NCBI GenBank assembly: GCA_041917755.1
Contig: JAYRWY010000003.1
Coordinates: 8,563 to 72,562, forward strand
DNA length: 64,000 nucleotides
From: Alphaproteobacteria bacterium
GTDB taxonomy: Bacteria; Pseudomonadota; Alphaproteobacteria; UBA9219; RGZA01
Reading direction: 5' to 3'
A program made the position numbers and the translations under genes. Positions within the stretch are counted from its first letter, which is position 1; every line of letters starts with the position of its first letter. Positions 4,073 to 12,621 of the stretch are shown here, piece after piece. The notes below the pieces were generated by a model that worked only from the letters and a program-made list of their open reading frames with translations, ran no database searches and was not told the origin of the DNA.

Positions 4073-4170
4073 GCCTATAACCTGCATATTCCTACTTTCA
4101 GTTATTGGCCTGCCGCGCTAAAACAGATCCCATAAAAATAAAGAAAAACGATAATATAAAAGGGATAGTT

Positions 4171-6108
4171 ATGCGCTTTTGGGTCCTCCTTATATTGCTC
4201 TTATTGCCCGTATCAGCTTGTCAGGATGTACAGCTGGATAAAATTGATCCTGTGATGGATTTAAATCGTGATGATTACCGCGATTTACGCAAAGAACGTG
4301 ACAGCAATGAAGGCCCACCCATTCCGCGTGTACCATTCAAGGCAAGTGCGAATTCAAAAAACAAAATTGCCAACGATAAAATTATTTCAATTTCTATAAC
4401 CGAAAAAGTTCCGGTTAAAGATGTCTTGCAGGAATTAGCCAGCAAGGCAGAAGTCAATCTTGAACTTGATCCGCGGATTTCAGGCGGCGTGATTTTTACT
4501 GCCATTCGTCAGCCATTTTCCAAGGTACTTGATCGCTTGTGCAATATGGCTGGTTTGCGGTATAAGGTTGAAGATAATTTTTTGCGAATTGAATTGGATG
4601 AGCCGTTTATCAAAAGCTACCCGATTGATTACCTGACATTGATACGTAAATCACAAAGTGAAATCGGGATTGCCACCAATGTATTCTCCAGCATTCAGGG
4701 TAATGGCCGCAGCAATAACTCCAATAATGGCAGCGATGTAGCCAGTGGTAATAACTCAACCACCAAGGTCGAAACGCAAGCTATTGCCGATTTTTGGGGA
4801 GAAATTGAAGCCAATGTGGAATCCATCCTCACTAATACAAAAAGCAGCCGCAACATGCGGGTAGATGGTGAAACGCTTAAAGAGCTTAAACAGGAAGGGA
4901 TTTCACCTACCAAAGCTTTCTCAATCAATAAGCAAGCCGGGCTCGTCAGCGTATTTGGCACAGACCGCCAACAGCAAGCTATAGAAGCATATCTCGTAAA
5001 AATCAGACGCAACGTCAGTTCCCAAGTTTTGATTGAAGCGCGTATCATCGAAGTAGAGTTAGATGAAAATTATAAGAGCGGCATCAATTGGCGTTCACTT
5101 TTCAATAGTGGCGTCAACGCTGCGGCACGCTTTGGTACGGCAGCGGCGGGCGCACCATTCGCGTCTGCGGCTACAGCAACAGATGGCGTAGTTACGCTAT
5201 CCCTTAAAGATAACGATTTCGCAGGAGTGCTAAATTTTGTTCGCAGCTTTGGTACGTCGCGCACCCTATCTAGCCCCCGCTTAACAGTGCTTAATAACCA
5301 ACCTGCAGTGCTTAAAGTCGCACGAAACGAGGTTTATTTTACCTCCACCATTGAAACCACACCAATTATTGGAACCAACGGAGGTAGTCCGGTGGGTGTG
5401 CAACGCACGGTCAACAGCACCCCAAATACAGTGCCAGTTGGCTTTTTAATGACAGTCCAGCCATCTATTAATCAAGAGCGTGATGAAGTGACGCTTAATC
5501 TGCGTCCGACTGTATCTTTTATTGTCGACCGTGTGGAAGACCCTGGTGTGAAGATTGCCGCTGCTGACGCTAACGTACCGGAGGTGTCGTCCTCCATACC
5601 CGTGGTGGCCGTGCGTGAAATGGATAGCGTCCTTACGCTAAAATCAGGTGCCGTCGCAGTGATGGGTGGTTTGATGCAAGATGCATCAGGTAACCTTGAG
5701 AAAGGTGTGCCATTTGCAGACGAAGTCCCTGTATTCGGTAACCTTGCGAAATCACGCAGTAACGATTCCAAGCTAACTGAACTTGTTATCCTGCTGCGTG
5801 CAACCGTCATGAATAACGATGCACCAAAGCCAGATGATGCAGATATAGAGCTATATAAGAAATTTAATCGCGATCGCAGACCATTACCTGTTTCATCCAA
5901 ATCAAATGACATTCAAGCATCAGATGAAGAACTGGATGGTGAATATGTAGATGATGGTCAGATATTGCCTGCGGTTTCTTCAGCCAAGGCAGCAAGCCGA
6001 GTGAACGATACCAGAACATCTGTGAATAACGGGGATAAGTCGCATAAGAAAAAAGCGACCAAGCATAAAAAGCATAAATCCAAAAAGAAAAAACACCACA
6101 GGCATTAA
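4171..6108 (+). CDS. secretin (GspD/PilQ family) of a type IV pilus / T2SS-like system; predicted lipoprotein with a polybasic C-terminal tail
   Basis: Signal peptide with lipobox LPVSAC. An N0/N1-like domain is followed by the conserved secretin C-domain (LSSPRLTVLNNQPAVLKV, VPFADEVPVFGNL, ELVILLRATV). The C-terminus is KSHKKKATKHKKHKSKKKKHHRH. Start chosen at the ATG with a GGGA RBS (ORF track begins at 4105). Confidence 0.85.
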   Translation: MRFWVLLILLLLPVSACQDVQLDKIDPVMDLNRDDYRDLRKERDSNEGPPIPRVPFKASANSKNKIANDKIISISITEKVPVKDVLQELASKAEVNLELDPRISGGVIFTAIRQPFSKVLDRLCNMAGLRYKVEDNFLRIELDEPFIKSYPIDYLTLIRKSQSEIGIATNVFSSIQGNGRSNNSNNGSDVASGNNSTTKVETQAIADFWGEIEANVESILTNTKSSRNMRVDGETLKELKQEGISPTKAFSINKQAGLVSVFGTDRQQQAIEAYLVKIRRNVSSQVLIEARIIEVELDENYKSGINWRSLFNSGVNAAARFGTAAAGAPFASAATATDGVVTLSLKDNDFAGVLNFVRSFGTSRTLSSPRLTVLNNQPAVLKVARNEVYFTSTIETTPIIGTNGGSPVGVQRTVNSTPNTVPVGFLMTVQPSINQERDEVTLNLRPTVSFIVDRVEDPGVKIAAADANVPEVSSSIPVVAVREMDSVLTLKSGAVAVMGGLMQDASGNLEKGVPFADEVPVFGNLAKSRSNDSKLTELVILLRATVMNNDAPKPDDADIELYKKFNRDRRPLPVSSKSNDIQASDEELDGEYVDDGQILPAVSSAKAASRVNDTRTSVNNGDKSHKKKATKHKKHKSKKKKHHRH

Positions 6109-6173: not shown

Positions 6174-6842
6174 ATGGGGTCACGAATGCGCGCGCGTCAC
6201 AATACTCACCACCATGCTGGTTTTACCCTTGTTGAAGTATCGATTGTGCTGGTTGTTATTGGCTTGTTGATTGGCAGTATTCTGGTAGCGGTAAACATTC
6301 TACAGAACGCTCGTATCACCGGCACGATAAGTACGTTGCAAAGCATCCAATCCGCTATCTCTACCTATAATCAAAATTATGGTGCTGTACCAGGTGATGA
6401 TGCACAAGCAACCTCGCGTTTTAGCATTGTCACAAACAGTGGTGGTGGCGACGGTATCGTTGGTACCAGCACAAGCTATAATTCCACCGCGGCGCTTGCA
6501 AATGGGAATGGTGCACCTGAAAGCCGTATGATCTGGGCAGATCTTCGCGCCGCTGGCCTCATTAAAGGGCAGGGTAGTGATGCCACGCAGCCCGGCAATT
6601 CATTTGGAGGCATATTCGGGGTTCAAAATGGTGCTTTTACCACCAATGGTTTTGCCGACAAGACGAATGTGTTGTGTCTAGACAAGGTTCCTGGCTCTGC
6701 AGCAACAATTATTGATCAACGTCAGGATGACGGTAACCCGCAAACAGGAAATATCCGTGCAGGTGTTGCAATTGATGGTGCAGCAGCTACCAATCCATAT
6801 GTAGAAACAAGCGTCTACATACTATGCACCCGCGCACTGTAA
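6174..6842 (+). CDS. type IV prepilin / pseudopilin (class III signal peptide)
   Basis: Leader MRARHNTHHHAG followed by FTLVEVSIVLVVIGLLIGSIL (G-1, F+1, E+5, hydrophobic helix). Start could be 6174 or 6186. Confidence 0.8.
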   Translation: MGSRMRARHNTHHHAGFTLVEVSIVLVVIGLLIGSILVAVNILQNARITGTISTLQSIQSAISTYNQNYGAVPGDDAQATSRFSIVTNSGGGDGIVGTSTSYNSTAALANGNGAPESRMIWADLRAAGLIKGQGSDATQPGNSFGGIFGVQNGAFTTNGFADKTNVLCLDKVPGSAATIIDQRQDDGNPQTGNIRAGVAIDGAAATNPYVETSVYILCTRAL

Positions 6843-7624
6843 TCTTGAATTCTGAACAAGGTTTTACATTGGCTGAAACCGCAATGGTATTGGCAATATT
6901 GGCGGTTGTGATTGGCACGCTGGTGCCTAGCTTTCTATCCATCCGCGTATCAGAGCAAGCCAGAACAACTTCTCAAAATTTGCAGACTGTTATGCGCTCC
7001 ATCGCGGCATTTGTTCAGTCATCAGGCTGCCTGCCTTGTCCCACGCCGGCCAGCGCCGCTTTCAGTAATGGCCATGGCTATGTGGCGGGCGGGAATGGCA
7101 CCGCCTGTGGTACGTGTTCTAACCCAACTGGGTTGCTGCCTTTCCGTTCGCTTGGTTTACAGGAGGCTTTGGCCAAGGATGCCTATGGCCATTGGCTTAC
7201 CTATGCCGTTGATACACGGCTAGCCAGTTATGTGGCCAGCGCACCAAATACCCAATTGCCAGTATCGGGCACTAATGGTTTGTGCAGTGTGACCATGGCT
7301 ACCGCTGCTCCGCTGGATATCCAGCTTAGTAACGGGGCACATCAATCGAATATAGCTGCAATGGTATTAAGCCATGGTGCAAATGGCTATGGCGCGTACA
7401 GGAATAATCCAAATGACGGCCGTCTGGCGTTTCCAAATGCCACTCCGGCATGTTCAGGCACAACAGGGGCTGAGCGATGCAATGCACGGGATAATAATCG
7501 GAACTTTATAACGCCCATCGCAGCTGCAGGTAATGATCCATTCGATGATAACTATCTGTATCTGGATCGCAATTCATTGGTGAGTTATCTGGGCAATCCT
7601 GCTTGTACAACAGGGTGGCCATAA
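6824..7624 (+). CDS. type IV prepilin-like protein (minor pilin or pseudopilin), Cys-rich
   Basis: Leader MHPRTVILNSEQG followed by FTLAETAMVLAILAVVIG. The mature part contains 8 Cys. It overlaps the previous pilin gene. Confidence 0.75.
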   Translation: MHPRTVILNSEQGFTLAETAMVLAILAVVIGTLVPSFLSIRVSEQARTTSQNLQTVMRSIAAFVQSSGCLPCPTPASAAFSNGHGYVAGGNGTACGTCSNPTGLLPFRSLGLQEALAKDAYGHWLTYAVDTRLASYVASAPNTQLPVSGTNGLCSVTMATAAPLDIQLSNGAHQSNIAAMVLSHGANGYGAYRNNPNDGRLAFPNATPACSGTTGAERCNARDNNRNFITPIAAAGNDPFDDNYLYLDRNSLVSYLGNPACTTGWP

Positions 7625-9336
7625 TGAAAAACGTTCTGAGCTTTCCAGAAATAAACCCAAAACGTCAAATGATCGGGGAATGGTTGTGTGCTCAAGGTAT
7701 CTTGAATGACGACCAGCTTCGTCTTGCCTTGCATGAACAAAAACAGCATCCGGATTTATTGGGACGGATACTTGTAAAGCTGCGCTTTATACAAGAAGAA
7801 CATGTCATTGAGGCGATTAGTGCGCAAACAGGTTTTTTAACTGTAAACCTTGCACATACCTCAATTGATGAAGATGCGGGGCGTTTTTGGGATAAAGACA
7901 TAGCCCAGCGTTATAAAGCCGTGGGCATTATGCTCGAAGACAATACTTTGTCTGTTGCGATGGCCGACCCATTGGATATCCGTGCCACCGATGCTATCAA
8001 GCGACAAATTCCTATGGATTTTGGATTGCGCTTTTTCATCGCAACCGAACAAGACATTCAGCAGTATATTGCCCGTGCCTATGGCCGTGCCGAGAATTTC
8101 AAATACCACTTAAGTGAAATGGAGCAGGGGCTGATCTCCCCAGTGCTCGATACAGTTGAAAATCACCCTGTCATTGCCACTGTCGAAGCTTTGCTGGCTG
8201 AAAGTGTAGCCAGTGGCGCCTCCGATATTCACTTGGAGCCGGAAGAAAAAACGGTGCGCATTCGTTTACGTATCGATGGCCAACTTAAAACTATCAGCCT
8301 GCTGCATCGTGCCTCTTGGCCGCGCTTGGCACAGCGTATCAAGGTTTTGGCAGGCATGGATATTGTTGACAGTCGTAACATTCAAGATGGCCGATTTCAT
8401 TTACAAATAGCCGGTAAGAATGTGGATTTTCGCGTATCTATTTTGCCCACCCAGCACGGCGAGAATATTGTCATTCGTATCCTTGATCAGGCGAGGGCCT
8501 TGTTACCCTTAGAACAGCTAGGCTTTAGCCAGCAGCAGGAATATTTATTACGTCGCTTGTGTTTGCGCCCAAACGGCATGGTTGTGCTCACGGGCCCAGT
8601 GGGTTCGGGTAAAACCACTACGCTTTACGCACTTCTGCAATTATTAGACAAGGATACGCGTAGTATTCGTACGCTTGAAGACCCGATTGAGTATCAATTA
8701 GAAGGTATTCGCCAAACACAAATCCGTGAAGGCTTCGGTCTCAGTTTTGCGGAAGGTGTACGTGCGGTTCTTCGCCAAGACCCCAACGTGCTCCTTATTG
8801 GTGAAATCCGTGATGCAGATACAGCACAAATGGCGTTGCGTGCTGCCATGACGGGCAGCCAAATTTTCACAACACTGCATACACAGGATAGTTTCGGGGT
8901 GTTCCCGCGTCTGCGTGAATTTGGTTTATCTCCGGGGTTAATGTCCGGGAATATTACCGCTACAGTAGCCCAGCGCCTGGTACGACTATTGTGTCAGGAT
9001 TGTAAGACAATGCGTGCGCCCGATGCCCATCTCAAATCGTTATTGTCCAGCAGCATCGAATTGCCACATAAGGTAGGACACCCTGTGGGCTGCCCGGCAT
9101 GTGATGATACAGGATATAAGGGACGTATCGTTATTTCAGAAGTATTACCCATCGATGCTGAATTGGACGAATTGATTGTCAGCAGTGCATCGCGCGCGCA
9201 ATTACTGCATGCCGCCAAGTCCAAAGGTTTTATCAGCATGGCCCAAGATGGCCTGAGTAAACTTGCCGAAGGCTTGATTAGTTTAGAAAGCCTCATGGCT
9301 GAGGTGGATCTCATCCATGCATCTGGCGGGAGCTAG
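7624..9336 (+). CDS. type II/IV secretion assembly ATPase (GspE/PilB family)
   Basis: GspE-type N-terminal domain, Walker A GPVGSGKTT, and the tetracysteine motif CQDC...CPAC that is typical of extension ATPases. Its ATG overlaps the pilin stop by 1 nt. Confidence 0.9.
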   Translation: MKNVLSFPEINPKRQMIGEWLCAQGILNDDQLRLALHEQKQHPDLLGRILVKLRFIQEEHVIEAISAQTGFLTVNLAHTSIDEDAGRFWDKDIAQRYKAVGIMLEDNTLSVAMADPLDIRATDAIKRQIPMDFGLRFFIATEQDIQQYIARAYGRAENFKYHLSEMEQGLISPVLDTVENHPVIATVEALLAESVASGASDIHLEPEEKTVRIRLRIDGQLKTISLLHRASWPRLAQRIKVLAGMDIVDSRNIQDGRFHLQIAGKNVDFRVSILPTQHGENIVIRILDQARALLPLEQLGFSQQQEYLLRRLCLRPNGMVVLTGPVGSGKTTTLYALLQLLDKDTRSIRTLEDPIEYQLEGIRQTQIREGFGLSFAEGVRAVLRQDPNVLLIGEIRDADTAQMALRAAMTGSQIFTTLHTQDSFGVFPRLREFGLSPGLMSGNITATVAQRLVRLLCQDCKTMRAPDAHLKSLLSSSIELPHKVGHPVGCPACDDTGYKGRIVISEVLPIDAELDELIVSSASRAQLLHAAKSKGFISMAQDGLSKLAEGLISLESLMAEVDLIHASGGS

Positions 9337-9338
9337 CC

Positions 9339-10541
9339 ATGCCTCATTACGCGTATCGTGCGGTAAATGAACAAGGCATGGTCAATAAAGGCGAGGCCCT
9401 TGCTGCCAACGAGAACGAGCTGTATGCCAAACTTCAGCAGCAGGGTTTAAATCTGATTGATTGCCACGATCGGCATGATGGTCAAAAATTATTTCAAAAA
9501 AAAATGAAACTAGCAGAACAGGTACTGCTATGTCGCCATCTAGTCATGCTCACCAAGGCAGGGGTTCCCGTCCATACAGCACTTGAAGATGTCTTACCAG
9601 CTCTGCCTGGCAATATCCGGCATAATGTCAGTTTAATTCTAGGCAATATAACAAGTGGTCAAAGCTTATCGTCATGCTTTGCTGAATCCAGTATGAAATT
9701 TGATCCGTTATTTTCCTTATTGCTAAGCGCCGGTGAAAAAACAGGAAAAATTACACAGGCACTGGAATATCTCTACGAAACTTTGAATTGGAAGCAGGAT
9801 TTTACCCAAAAATTGCAGCGCGCCTTATCATATCCATTATTACAAACAGCCATTGCCGGTACCGCAGTGGTTGTGCTGATGACAATCGCGGTTCCGCAAA
9901 TCATCCAGTTACTTGAAGTGATCGGCGAGCACTTACCCATTGCATCGGTTGCATTATTGTGGGGTATGAAACTTTTGGGTGCGGCAATTATTGTATTGGC
10001 CGTTTGCTCACTTGCAGCGGTAGTGTTTTTGCCATTTATCAAAAAAATGCATAATGACATCGCTGAATATATCGACCGTCTATGTCTTTCATTGCCTGTC
10101 ATTGGGCCCTTATTTAAAAAGGTTGAATTGGCACAAATAACCCATGTGTTCTCTGCAATGCTTGGTAGCGGGGTTCAGATGATGGAGGCATTGCAGTTGC
10201 TTCCCACTTTGACAAATAATACCGCCATGGCCGCATCATTGCGCCAAGCAGCTGAGCAGGTAAGAGGCGGGCAGGGCTTAAGTGCCGTATTAACCAAACA
10301 ATTGCTGATTCCCCCTTATGTCATTCGCATCCTAAAAATAGGCGAAGACAGCGGCAAAATGAGCGAAAGCCTTCGCCATATTTCACATGTTTATCAGGAA
10401 GAAAGCCGACAGGCCCTCGATCAGCTACTTAAAATTAGTAGTCTGTTCATCACTGTTGCGGTAGGCTTAATCCTTATATTGATGGTTAGCGGTGTCATGG
10501 TGCCGCTGTACCGTGGCATTAGTCATATGGTGGCTACATGA
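9339..10541 (+). CDS. inner-membrane platform protein (GspF/PilC family)
   Basis: 400 aa with two repeats of the GspF domain and TM helices. Starts 2 nt after the ATPase gene stop. Confidence 0.9.
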   Translation: MPHYAYRAVNEQGMVNKGEALAANENELYAKLQQQGLNLIDCHDRHDGQKLFQKKMKLAEQVLLCRHLVMLTKAGVPVHTALEDVLPALPGNIRHNVSLILGNITSGQSLSSCFAESSMKFDPLFSLLLSAGEKTGKITQALEYLYETLNWKQDFTQKLQRALSYPLLQTAIAGTAVVVLMTIAVPQIIQLLEVIGEHLPIASVALLWGMKLLGAAIIVLAVCSLAAVVFLPFIKKMHNDIAEYIDRLCLSLPVIGPLFKKVELAQITHVFSAMLGSGVQMMEALQLLPTLTNNTAMAASLRQAAEQVRGGQGLSAVLTKQLLIPPYVIRILKIGEDSGKMSESLRHISHVYQEESRQALDQLLKISSLFITVAVGLILILMVSGVMVPLYRGISHMVAT

Positions 10542-11839
10542 TTTTCTGTGGCGTAACGCGTTATACTCTTTTGCTTGGTGCGCGTGCGGCTGTGCTAATG
10601 CTGACGAATGGCAAAGACATCGAGACCAGTTGGATACTTCCATACAACAGCGATACATTTTATGAAACACTGTTAAATGCCATCAAACGCCATCCATTTT
10701 ATCCGTTAAAAATTGTGGTGGATTCAGCTCAGTTAGACGTACGCCTGGAATCTCTTCCTCCAACCAGTCCTTGGGCACGTCATAAACTGATTGAACGTCA
10801 ACGCGCCCATTTATTTCCGAAAGCCCAGCTCGAAACATCGTCTACCTACCGAGATGCCAATGGCAAGTGGATGGTATTGCATGCCGCCACCCCAGAAGAA
10901 GCTTGGCTGCAGCCGATCTTTGACAAACTCCAACAGATAGCTAATCCCATCGAACCGTTGTCATTTCTGGCAACCGAATGGTTCGATTTTGCTGGCCAGG
11001 TTTCAGTCATGCCTAAAAAAGGATGGGCATTTATCAATGTGCTAGGCGAAAGCTTTGGGTTGCGCCAATTGGTACTTAATGATGGTAAGCTGGTCTTTAC
11101 ACGTAGCCATCCAGACTGCGTTCCTAGTCTTCCTAAAGATGAATTGGCTCAGCGCATAGCGGCTCATATTCGATCAACGCAGGATTATCTGCCGCGCATT
11201 GATGCGTCATTGTTAAATGGTGTTATACCGCGCCTGTATGTGACCGAGCATCATAAGGAACTTACCGAAATTCCCGCACTCACCGCGCTGAATATTCAGC
11301 TCATCGCGATTGCTTCGCCAAAAACAGCGCACATACCTGCAGAATGGGCGGCTGACGTTGCATGGCTGCAGGTTGCGGCACAGGAAAAGCATGCAGCAAT
11401 GCCGATTGATACCAGCTGGCTCAAGCAAATGCGCGATGGCAGCATGAAGAAGCAGATTGCCCTATGGGTATTGATTTTCTTTGGCAGCGCAGGAATTTTT
11501 AGCGGTATGTCGATACTGACCAATGTTGATAGCGGACAACAGGTGCATCCCGCATCTGCGCCATCATTAGCCATGGAACCGGTTAAGCCCGTATCGGTTG
11601 TTGAACCCCCTTTGCCCACGCCGCCAGAGCTTAAACTTAACGCCGTGATTTATAATAATCCGCAGGATTGGGTTGTCTGGATTAATGGCGTAAAACATCT
11701 ACCGGGCGAGGACAAACAACATCTAACCATGTTGGATGTGTCGCCACAAACGGTGCTGGTTCATTGGCAAGATGGAAAAGCTGAACAACGCATCACCTTA
11801 AATTTGGTGCCGTCTATTCATACGGTTCAGCAGCCTTAG
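10538..11839 (+). CDS. bitopic pilus/secretion assembly protein: cytoplasmic domain + TM + periplasmic PilP/GspC-like HR domain (putative GspL/PilM-PilP fusion)
   Basis: Its start overlaps the platform gene stop (ATGA). There is a single TM helix (ALWVLIFFGSAGIFSGMSIL). The C-terminal segment LKLNAVIYNNPQDWVVWINGVKHLPGEDKQHLTMLDVSPQTVLVHWQDGKAEQRITLNL fits the PilP/GspC HR-domain pattern. Confidence 0.55.
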   Translation: MIFCGVTRYTLLLGARAAVLMLTNGKDIETSWILPYNSDTFYETLLNAIKRHPFYPLKIVVDSAQLDVRLESLPPTSPWARHKLIERQRAHLFPKAQLETSSTYRDANGKWMVLHAATPEEAWLQPIFDKLQQIANPIEPLSFLATEWFDFAGQVSVMPKKGWAFINVLGESFGLRQLVLNDGKLVFTRSHPDCVPSLPKDELAQRIAAHIRSTQDYLPRIDASLLNGVIPRLYVTEHHKELTEIPALTALNIQLIAIASPKTAHIPAEWAADVAWLQVAAQEKHAAMPIDTSWLKQMRDGSMKKQIALWVLIFFGSAGIFSGMSILTNVDSGQQVHPASAPSLAMEPVKPVSVVEPPLPTPPELKLNAVIYNNPQDWVVWINGVKHLPGEDKQHLTMLDVSPQTVLVHWQDGKAEQRITLNLVPSIHTVQQP

Positions 11840-12621
11840 TTATTTTCTAAAAATTGAATTCGTGCCTTGATGGCTTTGGCGGTTTGCGCATCCCCGCGCC
11901 AAAGGTTTTGTGCCTTTTTATATGCCGATATTGCGGGTTGATATTCGCCTTGTTCATCAAAGGCTCTGGCTTGTTCCAACAGCAAAGCAACACAATTGCT
12001 TCGTAATTGTAAATCATTCGGGGCTGATTTTATCGCGCTCATATATAATTCGATTGCTTTATTGATGTGACCAGTGGCGATGGCTTCATCAGCTTGTTGC
12101 TGCAATCGTTCAGATTTGGTCTGACTACGCGACGTCTCAACTTCAATGTAGCTTTTCGTCGTTAATGATGGTTTAGGCGACTGTGCAACAGGAAGGCGTT
12201 CTAACATGGGAACTAAATCCAGTTTTTCAGGCCCTTTAGATTTCTGGAAGTCTTTGCCCAATATAAATGCTTTGCTCGGTAATGGCGGAATAGCAGTGGC
12301 AGGAAACGCTGCTTCGGGTTCGTCATTATTTTTTATGTTCTGCACGGCGCTGGCCTGTATGCTTTGCGCGCTTATATGCTGTGCTTCGCGCCACATGTGA
12401 TTGAGTTGATCCCCTAACATGAACAGTGCAACAACGCTTGTTATAAAAAACGATATAATGGCGCCAAGCAGCGCATACAAAATATTCGGAGATGGCTGCC
12501 ATAGCCGTTGTTTGGAAAAATCAATCACCATAGGCTGCGCGGGCATGGGCGCGGCTTGCTCAGGCGTTAGCTTTGCCAGAGTAGGGGTGGTTTTAATTGT
12601 TTTCAAAATGATATGCGCCAT
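11836..12621 (-). CDS. membrane-anchored TPR-repeat protein
   Basis: One TM helix, a Pro-rich linker and TPR-like C-terminal helices (AIELYMSAIKSAPNDLQLRSNCVALLLEQARAFDEQGEY...). It lies downstream of atpF and is convergent with the pilus operon. Confidence 0.6.
   Translation of the reverse strand: MAHIILKTIKTTPTLAKLTPEQAAPMPAQPMVIDFSKQRLWQPSPNILYALLGAIISFFITSVVALFMLGDQLNHMWREAQHISAQSIQASAVQNIKNNDEPEAAFPATAIPPLPSKAFILGKDFQKSKGPEKLDLVPMLERLPVAQSPKPSLTTKSYIEVETSRSQTKSERLQQQADEAIATGHINKAIELYMSAIKSAPNDLQLRSNCVALLLEQARAFDEQGEYQPAISAYKKAQNLWRGDAQTAKAIKARIQFLENN

Follow-up and report, generated by a model that had tools for sequence, protein, structure and literature searches.

The analysed stretch of DNA (the window, 64,000 nucleotides) carries a six-gene cluster that encodes, in order, a secretin, a pilin, a pilin-like protein, an ATPase, a platform protein and, as its last gene, a 433-aa protein. 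A convergent gene follows. The genes lie as listed here.

4105..6108, + strand: lipoprotein secretin, MshL-like (Pfam Secretin and Secretin_N_2; lipobox LLPVSAC; likely true start at ATG 4171)
6174..6842, + strand: type IV pilin/pseudopilin, 222 aa (N_methyl, E = 7.8e-6)
6824..7624, + strand: second pilin-like protein, Cys-rich, 266 aa (N_methyl, E = 4.4e-4, just under the cut-off)
7603..9336, + strand: extension ATPase with an MshEN c-di-GMP-binding N-domain (T2SSE, E = 7e-112; MshEN, E = 1.5e-15)
9339..10541, + strand: platform protein, GspF/PilC family (Pfam T2SSF, E = 6.7e-37; TIGR02120, E = 4e-65, below cut-off)
10538..11839, + strand: 433-aa bitopic inner-membrane protein (ORF and translation; PilM-like domain, transmembrane (TM) helix, Pro-rich linker, HR-like domain)
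11836..12621, − strand: 261-aa protein with a TM segment and TPR-like repeats, convergent (TPR matches just under cut-offs)

The best NCBIfam match of the secretin is MshL (TIGR02519), at 213 bits and thus under the cut-off of 250. A segment of this protein (aa 90–163, nt 4372–4593) is N0-like and aligns with VcPilQ 155–227 (E = 0.018), the N0 domain of that secretin (PMC7545093). The GFTLVE of the 222-aa pilin is the only such motif across the window, and the ATPase scores 50.6 bits against NF053729, for which the cut-off is 38. The ATG of the 433-aa gene overlaps the TGA of the platform gene as ATGA. This confirms the coupling of the two genes claimed in a preliminary description of this DNA, and the identical 4-nt overlap recurs in six relatives (L001, L003, L005 and L009–L011). 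The 261-aa TPR-like gene likewise stays beside the 433-aa gene in close relatives; its product is a possible accessory protein, although it is uncertain whether it belongs to the system.

The 64-kb window holds no PilN-like or PilO/GspM-like ORF and no second ORF with the C-terminal domain of the 433-aa protein. No gene for a GspA ATPase or a GspS pilotin adjoins the cluster. A prepilin peptidase gene is also absent from the window, which indicates that other loci supply some components of the system.

An actin-like domain joined to a TM helix and linker

The preliminary description had divided the 433-aa protein into a cytoplasmic GspL/PilM-like region of about 300 residues, one TM helix, a Pro-rich linker and a C-terminal HR-type domain of about 60 residues. 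The sequence strings that it quoted are all present in the translation, and each part is borne out by the analyses below, the last of them with weak scores.

10538..11437, + strand: cytoplasmic actin-like (PilM/GspL-cyto-like) domain, aa 1–300 (Foldseek on the AF2 model)
11456..11518, + strand: single TM helix, aa 307–327 (hydropathy scan)
11519..11629, + strand: Pro-rich periplasmic linker, aa 328–364, about 37 residues (alignment A1)
11630..11806, + strand: periplasmic six-strand beta domain, HR-like (GspB/PilP type), aa 365–423 (AF2, Foldseek, Pfam, hhalign)

When the predicted structure of the N-terminal domain was compared with the PDB by using Foldseek, all seven matches at E ≤ 0.001 were PilM (E = 2e-7 to 2e-4, with 3jc8_Ma at 2e-7 and 5eou_A at 1e-5). 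Next after PilM came GspL-cyto (4pht_Y, E = 0.02), MreB and sugar/acetate kinases. These alignments are to be read with the mediocre quality of the full-length AF2 model (pLDDT 60.8) and the low TM-scores of the PilM alignments (0.2–0.27). Sequence profiles gave no link between the protein and PilM or GspL, either in Pfam and NCBIfam or among PDB sequences searched with the whole-protein profile A1, which returned no match, and with profile A3 of the unfused relatives described below. Profile A3 itself aligns to aa 12–345 of the 433-aa protein (E = 8e-46). Its consensus carries an N-terminal IGDxGA motif where the query clade has LLLxxRAA, and nucleotide binding by the query clade is therefore doubtful. 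A signal peptide at the hydrophobic N terminus was considered and rejected, as this segment lines up with IGDxGA, the first beta-hairpin motif in the relatives.

The hydropathy scan finds one TM segment. Residues 308–327 read ALWVLIFFGSAGIFSGMSIL, in which glycines G316, G319 and G323 are invariant in alignment A1. Basic residues flank the helix on its N-terminal side (KQMRDGSMKKQ), and an N-in/C-out topology thus fits. In the linker that follows, P342 (within PSLAMEP) and P363 are conserved in the same alignment, and pLDDT falls below 50 in the full-length model; VEPPLPTPPELK occupies aa 355–366.

A small periplasmic domain resembling HR domains

The C-terminal block LKLNAV...ITLNL (aa 365–423) is modelled by AF2 as six strands with a pLDDT of 88. 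Two lines of evidence point to the HR type. First, the best two Foldseek matches among 350,542 PDB chains are both PilP, albeit weak ones (E = 0.06 and 0.34). Second, T2SSB (PF16537) is the sole Pfam family found at E ≤ 0.01 for this domain, being matched by 8 of 25 members (best E = 7.8e-5) and also by three of nine stand-alone proteins that carry the C-domain. The query domain itself covers 52 of the 60 T2SSB profile positions with E = 0.0058, scoring 16.7 bits against a gathering cut-off of 28.4. Of GspB, PilP and GspC, the first is the closest to the domain. In characterized systems, the HR domain of GspB binds the secretin N0 domain and anchors the secretin at the inner membrane (PMC9239104), and PilP connects PilQ with PilMNO (PMC10191384).

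Other searches with this domain were negative or pointed elsewhere. Alignment by hhalign with Pseudomonas aeruginosa PilP (a sequence verified against PDB 2LC4) and with a 12-sequence PilP alignment gave a probability of 0.5%. The Pfam families PilP and T2SSC were not matched, and sequence-profile searches of the PDB did not find PilP, GspC or OutB. In PDB sequences the C-domain profiles (A2 and A5) yielded nothing beyond short, local similarity to fibronectin-III repeats, through a shared motif L-x-V-x-DVT-x-x-SV-x-V-x-W (titin, E = 2e-5 summed over repeats). A search of a 5.8-billion-protein collection returned 11 unnamed proteins that carry no Pfam domains. A fibronectin-III fold was rejected for the domain, because only about 20 residues are matched and a six-strand domain of about 59 aa is too small for it.

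These results bear on an alternative in which the protein is a PilM/GspL-like anchor whose C-domain does not bind a secretin N0 domain. The domain might instead be a generic small beta-sandwich of the fibronectin-III or another type, with peptidoglycan, pilins or a second copy of itself as its target. It would then take the place not of PilP but of the dimerizing ferredoxin-like domain found in PilN/GspL. The fibronectin-III matches, the negative hhalign comparison and the lack of significance of the Foldseek E-values for PilP all fit such a protein. The extent of the fibronectin-III match and the size of the domain speak against it, as do the identity of the two best structural matches and the fact that T2SSB is the only recurrent Pfam match. 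Furthermore, the stand-alone homologue of the domain in related operons sits at the PilP position, after PilM+PilN-like and PilO-like genes. We therefore regard this alternative as unlikely, although it is the strongest of those considered here, and favour an HR-like domain directed at the secretin.

Split and fused forms of the locus

Relatives of the N-terminal domain fall into 1,003 clusters at 50% identity and are PilM+PilN-like, most of them 450–600 aa long. The region after the TM helix in these unfused proteins has M. xanthus PilN as its top PDB match (E = 0.0047, with profile A3 hitting PilN only). In related operons, the N-domain is carried by a PilM+PilN-like protein of 475–594 aa. 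Nine such loci (L006, L007 and L012–L018) share a split layout, in which a gene for the N-domain, TM helix and PilN-like region is followed by a gene for a protein of about 200 aa with a TM helix and coiled coil, and then by a gene for a C-domain protein with a signal peptide. The ATPase and platform genes lie upstream of this trio in seven of the nine, whereas the sequence available for L014 and L017 contains the trio alone. Because the middle gene matches nothing in the PDB or Pfam, its assignment as PilO/GspM-like follows from architecture and position only. The third gene encodes a homologue of the C-domain: hhalign pairs the query C-domain with the stand-alone 137-aa protein of L006 at a probability of 98.9% (E = 1.7e-17). 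An AAA_22 GspA/MshM-like gene adjoins the stand-alone C-domain gene in L006. The split operons thus carry separately the same parts that the 433-aa protein holds in one chain, and this comparison is the decisive support for the single-chain PilM/GspL-like and HR-domain architecture given in the preliminary description. Five actinobacterial loci (L019–L023) gave weak partial matches (aa 243–331) and were treated as spurious.

In the fused loci (the window, L001–3, L005, L009–11 and L024), both downstream genes are missing. One fused protein, P0024, is closest in both halves to the two separate genes of L006 (43% and 42% identity), and its N-domain shares no more than 24% identity with that of the query clade. 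From these sequence relationships, the two genes were apparently joined on at least two occasions, and such recurrence supports a functional link between the two halves by the Rosetta-stone argument.

It is possible in principle that the fusion is real and that PilN/PilO-like or GspM-like partners encoded elsewhere are still needed, so that the protein is an M–P fusion working inside an ordinary subcomplex. The gene content examined is that of 64 kb of the genome, the missing prepilin peptidase places parts of the system outside the window, and type IVa pilus (T4aP) genes are typically scattered across several loci (PMC6668835). However, all split relatives have the O-like and P-like genes directly downstream of the M+N-like gene, and this position is empty in every fused locus. 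Moreover, the periplasmic PilN domain that would pair with PilO is absent, since the match to A3 ends near aa 345. We judge such dependence on distant partners to be improbable, and slightly more so than a C-domain with some other target.

Close homologues of the 433-aa protein (n = 16; 420–442 aa) are 43–83% identical to it across the full length. Intact single ORFs of 420–447 aa, with identities down to roughly 21–25%, occur in at least 25 sequences from independent NCBI, JGI, ENA and Logan assemblies. Given that the ORF is found at full length in these homologues, with the TM helix and linker kept, no stop codon interrupting the frame and no trace of a former boundary between genes, the frameshift or assembly artefact joining two genes that the preliminary description had named as a possible refutation is excluded for practical purposes. 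Distant full-length relatives have an identical architecture. The names in the databases all read ‘hypothetical protein’, and Pfam and NCBIfam searches with the 433-aa protein and 10 distant relatives gave no family match at E ≤ 0.1. The members that were traced to a named genome, a minority of the family, all belong to metagenome-assembled genomes of uncultured Alphaproteobacteria, Rhodospirillales or Rickettsiales.

A model for a single-chain coupler

With its architecture, folds, gene context, conservation and homology to split relatives established, the 433-aa protein is probably the bitopic inner-membrane coupler of a type IV filament machine that is minimal and MSH/T2SS-like. In the evolutionary model that we propose, the first and last genes of a PilM+N / PilO / PilP-like trio would have been joined, with loss of the periplasmic PilN domain and of the PilO-like gene as the fused protein arose. 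The cytoplasmic domain would then dock on the MshE-type ATPase, the platform protein or both, the linker would span the periplasm, and the HR-like domain would bind the lipoprotein secretin at its N0-like domain. If this model is correct, one polypeptide brings the motor in the inner membrane into line with the pore in the outer membrane, and PilN and PilO would be dispensable. To judge from the gene content of the 64 kb, the single chain may stand in for the whole subcomplex. It may also be the simplest natural link between an inner-membrane motor and an outer-membrane pore, because it unites PilM-like and periplasmic domains that are elsewhere distributed over three or four proteins. A stronger version of the model, to which we give somewhat less than even weight, is that one polypeptide suffices to link ATPase and platform to the secretin in a functional machine of six genes, that PilN, PilO and GspM are missing genome-wide, and that this arrangement evolved independently from the trio at least twice.

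Comparison with known systems

The T4aP subcomplex PilM–PilN–PilO–PilP of P. aeruginosa, M. xanthus and N. meningitidis supplies the best structural matches for both the N-domain (PilM) and the periplasmic beta domain (PilP). Its pilMNOP gene order is paralleled by the M(N)–O–P order of the split relatives, and the presumed link from ATPase and platform to the secretin N0 domain is the same. It differs in using four polypeptides rather than one and in having the PilN/PilO ferredoxin-like domain that is lacking here, and none of Pfam PilM_2, PilN, PilO or PilP matches the 433-aa protein. PilM is soluble and PilN, a separate protein, is bound to it through its N-terminal peptide, whereas here the domain runs covalently into a TM helix, as in GspL. 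PilP is an inner-membrane lipoprotein with a PilN/PilO-binding N-terminal segment, whereas here the beta domain has its own TM tether and no lipobox.

Type II secretion systems (T2SS) have a counterpart in GspL, a PilM+PilN fusion whose chain likewise runs from a cytoplasmic actin-like domain through one TM helix into a periplasmic domain. The M+N fusions of the split relatives are of this GspL-like kind, GspF is the best NCBIfam match of the platform gene, and the gene order ATPase–platform–L-like resembles that of a T2SS. In place of the linker and six-strand HR-like domain of the 433-aa protein, GspL has a ferredoxin-like domain in the periplasm, which forms a pair with GspM. There is no GspM or separate GspC here, and no match to T2SSL, GspL_C or T2SSC. 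GspC also continues beyond its HR domain with a PDZ domain or coiled coil, whereas the 433-aa protein stops 10 residues past the beta domain.

GspB/OutB resembles the membrane and periplasmic part of the protein in that one TM helix leads through a linker to an HR domain in the periplasm. The HR domain of these proteins consists of two three-stranded sheets (PMC9239104), and the six strands of the modelled C-domain agree with the number described for OutB. GspAB fusions show, too, that an HR domain can be linked via a TM helix with another type of cytoplasmic domain (PMC9239104). However, a 300-aa PilM-like cytoplasmic part lies outside the seven described GspB archetypes (PMC9239104), the conserved R144–E155 salt bridge of OutB has no obvious counterpart in the C-domain, and described GspB proteins are gamma- or betaproteobacterial whereas the host here is alphaproteobacterial.

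The cluster also resembles the MSHA pilus system (MshI/J/K/L/M/N/E/G), with MshL as the best secretin match, an MshEN-containing ATPase, a single locus and a TPR protein nearby. In that system, O-like MshJ and P-like MshK come after MshI, in which M-like and N-like parts are fused. Here, the MshL score stays below its equivalog cut-off, and no genes recognized as MshM, MshJ or MshK are present in the window. MSHA itself is poorly characterized (PMC10191384). In type IVb pili (T4bP), reduced subcomplexes such as TcpR/TcpD and BfpC show that fewer proteins can replace PilMNOP, and they include a bitopic protein whose cytoplasmic domain touches the ATPase (PMC10191384). At least two proteins are still used there, no HR-like fusion is described, and the 433-aa protein matches neither Pfam PAP_PilO nor any other T4bP family. 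Literature searches turned up no relevant account of an M–P fusion or of this alphaproteobacterial system.

Implications for motor–pore coupling

The role of PilMNOP/GspLMC is an open question in the field, and one review argues that nothing more than stabilization of the ATPase and platform may be required of these proteins (PMC10191384). A natural system with a PilM-like domain wired straight to an HR-like domain would offer a clean test case that is free of the PilN/PilO module, and the 433-aa protein is a small target for structure determination or for rebuilding a minimal system. If the single-chain reading holds, the PilN/PilO heterodimer would be dispensable for filament assembly and for alignment of motor and pore. 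The analysis also exposes a large unannotated family, the PilM+N-like clusters together with their partner at the PilP position, for which Pfam and NCBIfam hold no model. Profiles built for both would improve the annotation of type IV filaments in uncultured Alphaproteobacteria, Rhodospirillales and Rickettsiales.

The 433-aa gene and its cluster

The + strand open reading frame at window 10538–11839 encodes a 433-aa protein as the preliminary description reported, and the segments quoted there were located at aa 308–327 (TM helix), 355–366 (Pro-rich segment) and 365–423 (C-terminal block). It is the final gene of a six-gene + strand cluster, with rmuC-def-fmt-truA upstream and, on the opposite strand downstream, a 261-aa TM+TPR-like gene and ATP synthase F0 genes.

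Genes of the cluster, in order, and the adjoining 261-aa gene
4105–6108, +, lipoprotein secretin (best match MshL, with Secretin_N_2)
+, type IV pilin
+, Cys-rich pilin-like protein
7603–9336, +, ATPase (T2SSE and MshEN c-di-GMP-binding domain)
+, GspF/PilC platform protein
10538–11839, +, 433-aa query protein
11836–12621, −, 261-aa protein (a single TM helix; weakly matched TPR region, with scores just below Pfam cut-offs)

The same gene order is preserved at 44% identity in loci L001–L003, and at about 25% identity (L005) just the order of the six-gene operon persists. The query ATG overlaps the platform TGA as ATGA, and this 4-nt overlap occurs again in relatives L001, L003, L005 and L009–L011. 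A hydropathy scan reveals one TM segment (aa 307–327) preceded by basic residues, which fits an N-in/C-out topology with a cytoplasmic N-domain (aa 1–300), a linker (aa 328–364) and a periplasmic C-domain (aa 365–423).

A search of 5.8 billion proteins recovered 16 homologues of 420–442 aa, 43–83% identical over their full length, from NCBI, JGI, ENA and Logan assemblies. Further full-length proteins of the same architecture (roughly 21–37% identity; P0017–20, P0024, P0025, P0037 and P0162) emerged from an exhaustive profile search. Because independent assemblies and distant relatives share this architecture, the possibility that a frameshift or assembly artefact joined two genes is excluded.

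The stop codons of the 433-aa and 261-aa genes overlap convergently. The 261-aa gene also closes the atpB-E-F′-F series on the − strand, and accompanies the query homologue in L001–3 and L009–11 as well; its product could be an MshN/PilF-like accessory protein, or unrelated.

Folds of the two domains

For the N-domain, sequence models from Pfam, NCBIfam and the PDB gave no match. An AlphaFold2 model based on 16 aligned sequences reached moderate quality (pLDDT 60.8); its second half runs beta-beta-beta-alpha-beta-alpha-beta-alpha, as an RNase-H-like subdomain does. When the model was compared with 350,542 PDB chains using Foldseek, all seven matches at E ≤ 0.001 were PilM (M. xanthus 3jc8_Ma, E = 2e-7; P. 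aeruginosa 5eou/5eoy/5eox/5eq6), followed by the cytoplasmic domain of GspL (4pht, 5tkw), MreB, and sugar or acetate kinases. TM-scores are low (0.2–0.27), owing to the loose packing of the multi-domain model. From this predicted structure, we take the N-domain to be actin-like in fold, of PilM/GspL type, as had been proposed, rather than a member of the PilM sequence family.

At aa 8–21 (window 10538–10620), the query clade carries LLLxxRAA where split relatives keep IGDxGA at the first beta-hairpin, a sequence that resembles the phosphate-1 motif of actin-fold ATPases. This replacement hints that the query clade lost nucleotide binding, as in GspL.

The C-domain, modelled by itself with 22 diverse sequences, forms six strands (pLDDT 88), in agreement with the published OutB HR domain, which comprises two three-stranded up-down-up sheets (PMC9239104). 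Foldseek returned no significant PDB match for this model; PilP structures took the first two places (3jc8_Pa, E = 0.06, probability 0.98; 2y4y_D, E = 0.34, probability 0.91, TM-score 0.51, r.m.s.d. 3.5 Å). The one recurrent Pfam family in scans of individual C-domains is T2SSB (PF16537, the C-terminal domain of GspB), matched by 12 of 22 members at E ≤ 10 and, as the sole family, by 8 of 25 at E ≤ 0.01 (best E = 7.8e-5). The query itself aligns to 52 of the 60 T2SSB profile positions (E = 0.0058; 16.7 bits versus a 28.4-bit cut-off). Two results speak against a close relationship to PilP: hhalign gave 0.5% probability both for P. aeruginosa PilP (a sequence checked with 2LC4) and for a PilP alignment, and PDB sequence searches found a 20-residue Fn3-like motif match alone. 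Judged by the model and the weak PilP and T2SSB matches, the domain is HR-like, with its likeness to PilP/GspC refined: it lies nearest the GspB type, although membership of a named family could not be demonstrated.

Split and fused forms of the subcomplex

The strongest result of the analysis is comparative. In nine unfused loci (L006, L007, L012–L018), a PilM+PilN-like gene is followed by two more genes, with ATPase and platform genes upstream in seven of the nine (in L014 and L017, the trio alone is visible on the DNA examined). The first encodes a protein of about 195–229 aa with a TM helix, coiled coil and alpha/beta domain; it has no database match, and is PilO/GspM-like on architecture and position only. 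The second encodes a 137–363-aa protein with a signal peptide and the same C-domain (hhalign of the C-domain alignment to the 137-aa L006 protein: 98.9% probability, E = 1.7e-17). By this match, the query C-domain is the homologue of the PilP-position protein in a pilMNOP-like gene order. Both downstream genes are absent from every fused locus with visible downstream flank, and the 64-kb window contains no PilN-, PilO- or second C-domain open reading frame.

Fused forms do not make up one group in a rough neighbour-joining tree built on N-domains. The fused protein P0024 has the closest relatives of both its halves in L006: its N-domain shares 43% identity with the PilM+PilN-like protein there (versus 24% with the query), and its C-domain 42% with the stand-alone protein. 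The simplest reading of these sequence relationships is at least two independent fusions, and such repetition argues that the two parts function together.

The otherwise variable linker holds a conserved P-S-L-A-M-E-P at aa 340–346 (window 11555–11575), with P342 invariant. Stand-alone C-domain proteins of L006, L012 and L014–L018 share an N-terminal ‘SLMF/SLFF..E’ motif that may be a PilN/PilO-binding segment, and the linker motif could be what is left of it. In L006 (12531–14350, −), the stand-alone gene adjoins a TPR protein and an AAA_22 ATPase (GspA/ExeA/MshM-like, 296 aa, without a periplasmic region), echoing the GspA–GspB pairing.

Searching 1.84 billion representatives with a profile yielded 1,003 relatives at E ≤ 0.001 (252 at E ≤ 1e-10), most of 450–600 aa, in which the N-domain and TM helix are followed by a coiled coil and a globular domain. 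Since the N-domain and TM helix are shared with the query, and the top PDB match of a 69-relative profile is M. xanthus PilN (E = 0.0047, over TM helix and coiled coil), these are PilM+PilN-like fusions, as PulL/GspL is (PMC10191384). They match nothing in Pfam or NCBIfam, and the few with a source name are ‘hypothetical protein’. More than 1,000 clusters at 50% identity (P0024–P0164; L006, L007, L012–L018) lack a model, as do their PilO- and PilP-position partners, likewise named only ‘hypothetical protein’. Every identified host is an uncultured Alphaproteobacteria, Rhodospirillales or Rickettsiales MAG. Five actinobacterial loci from a genome scan (L019–L023; open reading frames of 404–406 aa in L020–L023) match aa 243–331 alone at 32–38% identity, and are probably spurious matches to the pattern EWxAD[IV][AT]WL.

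A proposed single-chain model

Reviews count PilM, PilN, PilO and PilP as four separate proteins; in PulL they see PilM and PilN fused, and in TcpR/TcpD a smaller set, whereas the query unites PilM-like and HR-like parts in one. None of the seven published GspB archetypes, which include GspAB fusions, has a PilM-like domain such as the query carries (PMC9239104). Literature searches found no description of the fusion, in keeping with the preliminary description, or of the alphaproteobacterial system that carries it. The single-chain interpretation is supported, with the GspB-type refinement.

In known systems, the cytoplasmic domain of GspL binds GspE, PilM binds PilB or PilC, HR domains of GspB, GspC and PilP bind the secretin N0 domain, and GspB anchors the secretin at the inner membrane (PMC9239104, PMC10191384). 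By analogy, the function of the query can be pictured as follows: the N-domain would dock onto the ATPase or the platform protein; the linker, some 37 residues long and able to stretch to at most about 11 nm, would reach the N-terminal ring of the secretin; and the C-domain would bind a putative N0-like segment there. This segment (secretin aa 90–163) aligns to VcPilQ N0 residues 155–227 (E = 0.018; PMC7545093) and to HofQ 23–91.

No prepilin peptidase lies within or beside the cluster, and the 64-kb window contains no second pilin motif or PilT-like ATPase. Two PilT-like ATPase genes adjoin the operon in several split-type relatives (L007, L012, L013, L016 and L018), so the fused-type machine may be non-retractile. 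The extension ATPase carries an MshEN domain and scores above the threshold of NF053729, the NCBIfam model for the c-di-GMP-binding motif (50.6 bits; cut-off 38), which suggests that the machine is under c-di-GMP control. The secretin open reading frame (4105–6108, +) begins at TTG; an internal ATG at 4171 yields the lipoprotein signal MRFWVLLILLLLPVSAC, and its C terminus is an unusual Lys/His-rich tail, KSHKKKATKHKKHKSKKKKHHRH.
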